In this document: one piece after another, positions 26,676 to 26,725 of the stretch
Layout: each line of letters starts with the position of its first letter
How positions within the stretch are numbered: the stretch's first letter is position 1
Assembly: GCA_041662205.1 (NCBI GenBank)
Contig: JBAZSZ010000001.1
Location: 17,973-81,972 of the forward strand
Reading direction: 5' to 3'
DNA: 64,000 bases
Source: Minisyncoccota bacterium
GTDB taxonomy: Bacteria; Patescibacteriota; Minisyncoccia; Phycocordibacterales; UBA9973
The notes under the pieces: model-generated
What the model saw: only the letters and a program-made list of their open reading frames with translations
What the model was told of the DNA's origin: nothing
Databases searched by the model: none
Program-made: the position numbers and the translations under genes

Positions 26676-26725
26676 GTCGCGCTTCAGTGGACAATTGCGC
26701 GACATGATTCTGCAGAATCAATATG
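26676..26725 (+). promoter_or_regulatory. copy D of a conserved ~48-nt start-codon-abutting module (upstream of gyrB)
   Basis: GTCGCGCttcagtGGACaattGCGCGACaTGATTCTGCAGAATCAatATG. There are two inverted repeats, GTCGCGC/GCGCGAC and TGATTCTG/CAGAATCA. See findings for the four-way alignment. Confidence 0.5.

Follow-up and report, generated by a model that had tools for sequence, protein, structure and literature searches.

A 45-base two-hairpin repeat in one group of ultra-small bacteria, the Parcubacteria

Copies of the element in the analysed window

The stretch of DNA that we analysed (hereafter the window) is 64,000 nucleotides long and has a G+C content of 34.5%. It carries four full copies of a short module, all on the + strand and each located 0–4 nt 5′ of an ATG. 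Pfam searches assigned the downstream genes to GyrB (gyrB, ATG 26723), RNase III (rnc, ATG 31569), TGT (tgt, ATG 59223) and a dockerin-domain protein (ATG 60574). The original prediction held that these four modules are homologous, and their sequences were present exactly as first quoted. A search of the window with the skeleton GAC-N5-CG-N3-TGATT-N2-GC-N2-AATCA (17 fixed bases, up to 3 mismatches) returned 4 sites, compared to 0.09 expected from dinucleotide shuffles, and an nhmmer profile gave four matches at E < 1e-14, with everything else at or below 8 bits. These results show that the four-way similarity is far beyond chance. The copies (D, A, B and C), their two stems (P1 and P2) and the neighbouring features are listed below; bit scores are those of the covariance model described in the next section.

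8906..8923, + strand: P2-only remnant A-TGATTT-TGCCT-AAATCA (17.9 bits, weak), followed by A and the ATG (8925) of a pilin-like (N_methyl) gene
26634..26659, + strand: gyrB promoter of sigma-70 type, TTGGCA-N17-TATAAT; pre-existing, overlapping the pheT end, outside the element and conserved in relatives
26666..26675, + strand: ten extra bases, AGTAGATAGG, which with copy D form a 55-nt block missing from the relatives' gyrB 5′ region in the alignment
26676..26720, + strand: copy D, before gyrB (65.3 bits); missing in five relatives
26676-26682 / 26697-26703, + strand: P1 of copy D, GTCGCGC/GCGCGAC, with a 14-nt loop (26683-26696) containing GAC (26690-26692)
26705-26710 / 26715-26720, + strand: P2 of copy D, TGATTC / loop TGCA / GAATCA, preceded by junction A (26704) and followed by AT and ATG 26723
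31526..31568, + strand: copy A, before rnc (58.9 bits); ATG 31569, spacing 0
31526-31532 / 31545-31551, + strand: P1 of copy A, ATCGCGC/GCGCGAC, with loop CTTAATGGACTT; junction G at 31552, P2 at 31553-31568
59180..59221, + strand: copy B, before tgt (48.8 bits); begins 4 nt past the mreC stop (59173-59175)
59180-59186 / 59198-59204, + strand: decayed P1 of copy B, GTTGCGC/ACACGAC, 5 of 7 pairs; junction G at 59205, P2 at 59206-59221, then A and ATG 59223
60512-60517, + strand: TACAAT -10 box near copy C
60528..60569, + strand: copy C, before the dockerin-domain gene (45 bits), followed by ATTT and ATG 60574
60528-60533 / 60548-60552, + strand: decayed P1 of copy C, 5 bp plus a bulge, with loop CTTAATTGACTTA; junction A at 60553
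60554-60559 / 60564-60569, + strand: P2 of copy C, TGATTT/AGCT/GAATCA, with a U-G wobble

The minimum-free-energy fold of copy D consisted of exactly P1 and P2. A distal GTCGCGC/GCGCGAC inverted repeat had been claimed for copies D and A; this stood for D, where the stem is intact, while A retains 6 bp plus an A.C mismatch, and B and C are partly decayed. The P2-only remnant (about −3 kcal/mol) begins 12 nt past the last base of a TATAAT (8889-8894). Between 8889 and 8925, this TATAAT is followed by ACCCAGT and then by the hairpin; a transcript would begin at about the foot of the hairpin and would carry a 5′-terminal AUG, out of frame with the pilin-like gene.

Other GC-rich, hairpin-forming spacers were seen in the window at about 4350-4400, 30500-30570 and 55950-56100 (e.g. 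CCTACACCAGGAGAAGGGGATTTCCCCTTCTCCTGGTGTAGGG), and these may be terminators or another type of repeat. The gene at 60574-61605 encodes a protein with a dockerin type I domain (Pfam E = 4e-7), which is unusual in an apparent Parcubacterium.

An SD-like core was present in 2 of the 49 window genes, and 13 of the 49 had a -10-like hexamer ending 5–12 nt before the ATG (e.g. upstream of 20216, 24093, 39796 and 55227). Such signals suggest that translation of the window genes is mostly SD-independent and that many of these genes are leaderless or short-leadered. According to a published survey, the anti-SD motif is missing from the 16S rRNA of one Parcubacteria subgroup (PMC9297842). A search of the collected loci for a 16S rRNA 3′ end that might pair with UGAUU/AAUCA found no 16S sequence.

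Structure and distribution of the family

The consensus of about 90 copies is GYCGCGY-[yUUyAAUG-GAC-N2-4]-RCGCGRC-R-UGAUUy-NGCN-rAAUCA. P1 is a 7-bp GC-rich stem that closes an 11–14-nt loop with an invariant GAC and is followed by one purine; P2, a weak stem with 6 bp of the A/U type (UGAUUy/rAAUCA), closes an NGCN tetraloop, with loop lengths from 3 to 5 nt among the copies. In the alignment of 91 copies, the P2 sequence is nearly invariant and 97.3% of the stem cells are paired. Both inverted repeats, for which covariation had been proposed, proved to be base-paired stems with compensatory changes: 10 of the 13 pairs were altered on both sides, 102 cells were compensatory, 0 of 500 shuffles reached as much, and no slid register came close. 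The exchange of TGATTT/AAATCA for TGATTC/GAATCA, first noticed among the window copies, is real and general, with the variable pair of P2 being U-A in 63, C-G in 25 and U-G in 2 of the 91 copies. Compensatory P2 variants were also found outside the constraint of the search pattern (UAAUUC/GAAUUA, UGACUU/AAGUCA, UGAUCU/AGAUCA and CGAAUC/GAUUCG), and some of them share a genome with canonical copies, as UGACUU/AAGUCA does in MAG CAWCTC. Since compensatory variants sit beside canonical copies, both repeats are real single-stranded stems and not the half-sites of a duplex operator.

This bears directly on the suggestion in the original prediction that TGATT-N6-AATCA is a dyad operator for a dimeric DNA-binding regulator, to which the idea of a DNA uptake signal is related. 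The 16 bp of P2 do form an almost perfect palindrome around a GC centre, and the distribution is patchy and lineage-specific, as such a site might be. The half-sites, however, change together within one genome, the loop of P2 varies in length and leaves the spacing unfixed, P1 covaries freely, and a symmetric DNA site should not be so strongly biased to one strand with respect to transcription. We therefore give the operator next to no credence, and a shared regulator, though conceivable, is no longer the simplest explanation.

Folding energy set only copy D clearly apart from shuffles (z = −1.9), and copies A–C were no better than shuffles. Energy alone would have missed the structure; it is covariation that reveals the stems. 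Among the non-Watson-Crick stem cells, counted on the sense strand in an 89-copy subset of the 91-copy alignment, there were 23 A.C compared to 10 G.U. The A.C excess comes partly from a recurrent GCCACGC/GCGCGGC subfamily, and it could mean that the antisense DNA strand folds or that the copies are non-independent. At the P1–P2 junction, all seven copies on CAWCTC010000001.1 (one 733-kb contig, covering loci L023, L026 and L058) have G, compared to A in most genomes, which looks like a genome-specific signature of this MAG.

The family was searched for with the pattern TGATTNNGCNNAATCANNNCGN{5,7}GTC in one representative genome per species, which returned at least 118 loci (collected loci are given here by L numbers). 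Among the matches listed, at least about 80 were genuine copies, all in Patescibacteria MAGs, and about 40 were structureless chance matches in unrelated high-GC taxa, with the upstream stem missing. Nearly all genuine copies lay in MAGs labelled Nomurabacteria, Paceibacterota, Kaiserbacteria, Parcubacteria, Minisyncoccia or Saccharibacteria, the last of these probably a mislabelling. With a covariance model built from 61 copies, we detected 91 copies (a lower bound) in the collected loci. Related copies and GyrB relatives came from Parcubacteria/Paceibacteria MAGs and from groundwater-type metagenomes. The original prediction had proposed a search for further copies beyond the window, and the pattern scan and covariance model yielded at least about 90 of them in Parcubacteria/Paceibacteria MAGs. 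The element is restricted to a subset of this group (Nomurabacteria-, Kaiserbacteria- and Paceibacterota-labelled MAGs). On viral contigs, the pattern scan gave 6 chance matches and no real copy, and carriage by phages was rejected on this basis.

At the gathering threshold, an Rfam 15 scan of the window reported two tRNAs only and no family for the module, and E-value-mode scans of copies D and A gave chance-level matches only (E of about 1–8). The searchable literature contained no description of the element sequence, nor of any MITE- or REP-like repeat in Patescibacteria/CPR. The supposition that the module had not been described before thus held in both Rfam and the searchable literature. 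In its behaviour, the element comes closest to the Rickettsia palindromic elements (RPEs).

Identity between copies was 0.756 within genomes and 0.733 between genomes (permutation 111/2000). Since the within-genome value barely exceeds the between-genome value, a recent burst or concerted evolution was rejected. At L094:98-2597, three copies that are 95–98% identical precede three consecutive genes within 2.5 kb; nowhere else was there a clear sign that copies had recently been amplified locally. At L069:4605-4690 and L113:6270-6360, a full copy is nested in the P1 loop of another copy, directly 5′ of the outer GAC. Tandem or 5′-truncated copies occur in L096, L030 and L081.

Insertion sites and sequence contexts

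The sequence 5′ of gyrB is GGTTGGCAAGTGAGGTAAAATTTGCTATAAT-N8-ATG in five relatives, with TTGGCA-N17-TATAAT over the pheT end and the ATG 8 nt on, and it contains no module. In the alignment with these relatives, the window sequence was 55 bases longer, the surplus (AGTAGATAGG and the 45-nt element) falling between TATAAT-ACTATC and AT-ATG. Among 80 gyrB loci of relatives (65–89% protein identity, 1.12 Mb), 2 copies only were found, both in L158. At rnc, the relatives have the nusB-NUDIX stop, 1–20 A/T-rich nt and the ATG, with no element, and L138 has a decayed element remnant at this site. At both gyrB and rnc, therefore, the window copy has been inserted at a position where the closest relatives have no element. 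In the window, the nusB-NUDIX fusion ORF (30572-31537) now ends at a stop TAA (31535-31537) inside the P1 loop of copy A; through this insertion it lost its ancestral C-terminus and stop, which the relatives still show. The ancestral gyrB appears, from its TATAAT-N8-ATG arrangement, to have been a gene of leaderless type.

The original prediction had also considered that the module is itself a promoter for leaderless mRNAs, with a -35-like TTGACT/TGGAC in the loop and a -10-like CWRAAT in P2. The loop does contain xGAC, and CAAAAT- or CTAAAT-like hexamers do occur in P2. A leaderless sigma-70 promoter would have a 16–18-bp spacer between -35 and -10, and a -10 ending about 6–8 nt before the A of the ATG. 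In the module, however, the usual form with a long loop has a 19-bp spacer, and the candidate -10 ends 2–4 nt before the ATG, which would place the transcription start at or past the ATG. In the -35 it is GAC that is conserved and not TT. The stems covary, which a promoter does not need, and copies lie within ORFs. The conserved canonical promoter upstream of the gyrB copy, TTGGCA-N17-TATAAT, works without the module in relatives. We consider it highly improbable that the module is a promoter. Sigma-54, ECF and attC-like readings, judged by eye from the alignments, misfit in spacing and core sites. A likeness of GCGCUUUAAUG to BoxA (NusB/NusE) was ruled out because many loops lack the U-tract, and a CsrA-type GGA loop because GGA is not conserved, whereas GAC is.

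Approximately 10 of 89 copies lie within long sense ORFs. In 10 of 10 clear cases they use one shared frame, in which the 45 nt provide 15 codons for a near-identical 15-residue peptide. Protein alignments showed that orthologues without the 12–15-aa insert exist for every aligned host:

AddB/RecB-like nuclease: insert in L079; missing in window gene 21171-24074 and six others
Uracil-DNA glycosylase (UDG): insert in L011; missing in L119, L123 and L132
RsmA: insert in L091 and L093; missing in L061
UvrD-like helicase: insert in L061; missing in L093
XerD-like recombinase: insert in L020; missing in L022 and L024

The XerD-like site shows a clean 45-nt insertion, GGT/TGTCGCG...GAATCA/GAT, compared to the empty GGT/GAT. 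Other copies follow a stop codon and precede an intrinsic terminator (L023:6378, L058:6581, L036:5630 and L026:1206). On CAWCTC010000001.1, several copies form motif-plus-terminator units in 3′ UTRs.

The genes downstream of the copies are functionally unrelated (H+-PPase, DnaK, RecA, SHMT, RRF, aaRS, SecE and pilins, among others), and 61 downstream proteins had matches to 103 Pfam families, none of them common to more than 3 proteins. A riboswitch or gene-specific leader was rejected because this set is functionally incoherent, in agreement with the original prediction, which had already argued against a pathway-specific riboswitch. Of 89 copies, about 86 run in the sense direction of the host transcript and about 3 may be antisense; the orientation matches that of the nearby gene, also in loci whose genes are mostly encoded on the opposite strand. 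The one clear antisense copy was observed at L085:1634-1685, in the 3′-terminal part of a minus-strand ORF (1598-2101) and just upstream of the next minus-strand gene. Occupation of many non-homologous sites, together with filled and empty orthologous sites, places the element among interspersed mobile repeats in the generic sense. The original prediction missed both the insertion nature of the modules, whose orthologous sites in close relatives are empty, and the dispersed family with its in-frame and 3′ UTR copies.

Start-codon register, constraint and proposed mechanism

A downstream ORF start was present for 69 copies, and in 54 of these the element ends 0–4 nt before it, with a sharp mode at 1 nt (9, 31, 2, 9 and 3 copies at spacings of 0, 1, 2, 3 and 4 nt, respectively). 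This spacing is tighter than harmless random insertion predicts. In start-adjacent copies, the P2–ATG spacings modulo 3 were distributed as 24:35:3. The rare class is the one in which the stop of R-UGA-UU is in frame with the gene, and in the commonest class (spacing 1) a junction AUG or GUG is in frame 18 nt upstream. In a uORF test, the frames were mostly open and RUG was in frame in 35 of 62 copies; the bias remains. A translated uORF or an N-terminal extension starting from the junction RUG or from a loop AUG was rejected because stops interrupt several copies, among them copy C of the window and the copy in L088.

Hexamers resembling -10 boxes were found 3–17 nt upstream of P1 at 0.44 per copy, compared to 0.15 in control genes, and the element typically lies a short way 3′ of a resident promoter. 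For 11 copies, no more than 3–5 nt separate P1 from the nearest -10 box, so transcription would begin within the 5′ arm and the RNA would miss part of it.

Copies at orthologous sites (L091/L093 in rsmA; L015/L099 and L058/L081 upstream of orthologous genes) are about 86% identical and differ by compensatory pairs. Because they keep their structure through these compensatory changes, the element may have been domesticated. Register, orientation, low within-genome excess identity and compensation at orthologous sites point to in-place constraint and to a role at the host or RNA level; for the last two observations, in-situ selection (host function) fits better than decaying selfish DNA. Gene conversion, or a bias of the model to intact copies, could mimic in-place constraint.

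An alternative built on this constraint is a host cis-acting RNA module, in which P1 and P2 form a portable 5′ leader to which the ribosome or an RNA-binding protein specific to the lineage would bind. Such a leader would set the translation or stability of many genes without SD pairing, and mobility would be only the route by which the regulon grows. The start-codon register with its 1-nt mode and the sense-only orientation argue for this reading, as does the retention of structure by compensatory change at orthologous sites. The enrichment of -10-like boxes upstream of P1 suggests that the module would often be the entire 5′ UTR, and the motif-plus-terminator units could serve as decoy small RNAs. 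The loss of the anti-SD in a Parcubacteria subgroup (PMC9297842) and the scarcity of SD-like cores in the window are also consistent with it. However, copies lie in frame within ORFs and in 3′ UTRs as well, close relatives lack the module in the leaders of two essential genes, gyrB and rnc, and the 11 copies with a very close -10 box would start within the 5′ arm. The stem mismatches show no RNA-type preference for G.U, and the host genes share no functional link. We regard a host RNA module as possible, with odds well below even.

A more specific proposal, which we put forward tentatively and consider unlikely, is that the element is a new mobile functional RNA, a transcribed 'portable leader' selected for its structure. 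It would putatively be recognised by a lineage-specific protein or by a ribosome without anti-SD, or would be self-processing; it would turn leaderless genes into regulated leadered ones, and its 15-residue insert would be tolerated within genes. This proposal derives from the sense-only orientation, the 1-nt ATG register, the modulo-3 bias and the compensation at orthologous sites. A further possibility is a leader that removes itself, with putative cleavage at the 3′ foot of P2, by a ribozyme or a hairpin-specific endonuclease, restoring a near-leaderless N-AUG mRNA. The leaderless type of the ancestral gyrB (TATAAT-N8-ATG), a P2–ATG distance held to 0–4 nt and the nearly invariant P2 sequence are compatible with such cleavage. 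The element nevertheless bears no likeness to any Rfam ribozyme, and the intragenic copies, being 45 nt, stop-free and in one frame, would be translated rather than cut; we judge self-removal to be quite improbable.

We favour the reading that the 48-base modules before gyrB, rnc, tgt and the dockerin gene are copies of an interspersed mobile palindromic element (RPE-, REP- or MITE-like) that has possibly been domesticated, and we assign it a probability of about 0.6. The mobile element may have spread by a copy-and-insert process in which the hairpins are recognised in their folded form, as single-stranded DNA or RNA, and copies would have persisted only at harmless sites. With a length of 45 nt and two stop-free sense frames, it can be read through. 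Upstream of genes, P2, as a weak hairpin with an A-rich 3′ arm, would leave a usable SD-independent start context right before the ATG, and the four unrelated window genes would have gained a structured leader of 45–60 nt.

Several hallmarks of mobility were looked for directly. A tblastn search for a mobilising enzyme, with approximate RAYT, IS200 and IS608 TnpA queries against about 2 Mb of 8–22-kb locus fragments, is a weak test and gave nothing significant. Terminal inverted repeats are absent, as the ends (N)GYCGCG... and ...rAATCA are non-complementary and the repeats are the two internal hairpins. No target-site duplication was found at the XerD-like site, the one clean site compared, and no clear target motif emerged, with flanks that are only A/T-rich and have a weak G-C at −2/−1.

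Among known systems, RPEs are repeats of about 100–150 bp that are confined to Rickettsia, lie in frame in unrelated ORFs with one conserved peptide frame and have no known transposase (PMC10969869). The element resembles them as a palindromic interspersed repeat of a reduced genome that occurs in frame in unrelated housekeeping ORFs and also between genes, with no transposase known. In contrast to RPEs, it is three times smaller (45 nt), occurs in Patescibacteria MAGs only, is unrelated in sequence and has two distinct adjacent hairpins, and its copies lie mostly 0–4 nt before start codons and nearly always in sense. REP/REPIN (RAYT) and IS200/IS605-derived elements are likewise short (20–50 nt) imperfect palindromes with covarying stems and without target-site duplication, and they are presumed to be recognised as folded single strands. 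Unlike REP/REPIN elements, the element has a GTAG head in only 4 of 89 copies, is not confined to extragenic or 3′ sites and forms no inverted doublets; for both groups, a Y1/RAYT gene had no match in the locus fragments, within the limits of the weak test with approximate queries. MITEs such as the Neisseria Correia elements and ERIC are also non-autonomous dispersed repeats near gene starts that are co-transcribed and alter the 5′ UTR; their defining features are terminal inverted repeats and target-site duplications, whereas the element has neither.

Two further systems offer partial parallels. The GC clusters and 'byp' elements of yeast mitochondria are GC-rich hairpins that spread in a compact AT-rich genome, also within coding sequence, and the element shares with them both this setting and the ability to sit in coding sequence. 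The ribosome bypasses byps, whereas for stop-free, 45-nt copies in one frame read-through suffices. In 'mobile promoter' or promoter-propagation regions, the same 5′ sequence lies upstream of non-homologous genes, as it does here; the element differs in having no promoter of its own and in lying downstream of a resident one.

CPR bacteria have tiny, dense genomes in which repeats and expression signals are almost uncharted, and the element, undescribed before and found in one group of these ultra-small bacteria, is among the smallest interspersed repeats with two covarying hairpins. Essential genes have their 5′ ends rewritten by it, as when a gyrB of leaderless type receives a structured leader, and conserved enzymes are extended by 15 residues. 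It can be used as a marker of lineage-specific genome dynamics. It is also a warning for annotation, as copies can create false start sites, extended ORFs (nusB-NUDIX) and spurious 'regulatory motifs'. The finding would carry far more weight should an RNA function prove to lie behind the register with the start codon and the compensatory changes in place. The element provides an entry point both to SD-independent translation that tolerates structure beside the start codon and to the enzyme that moves hairpin elements in these bacteria.
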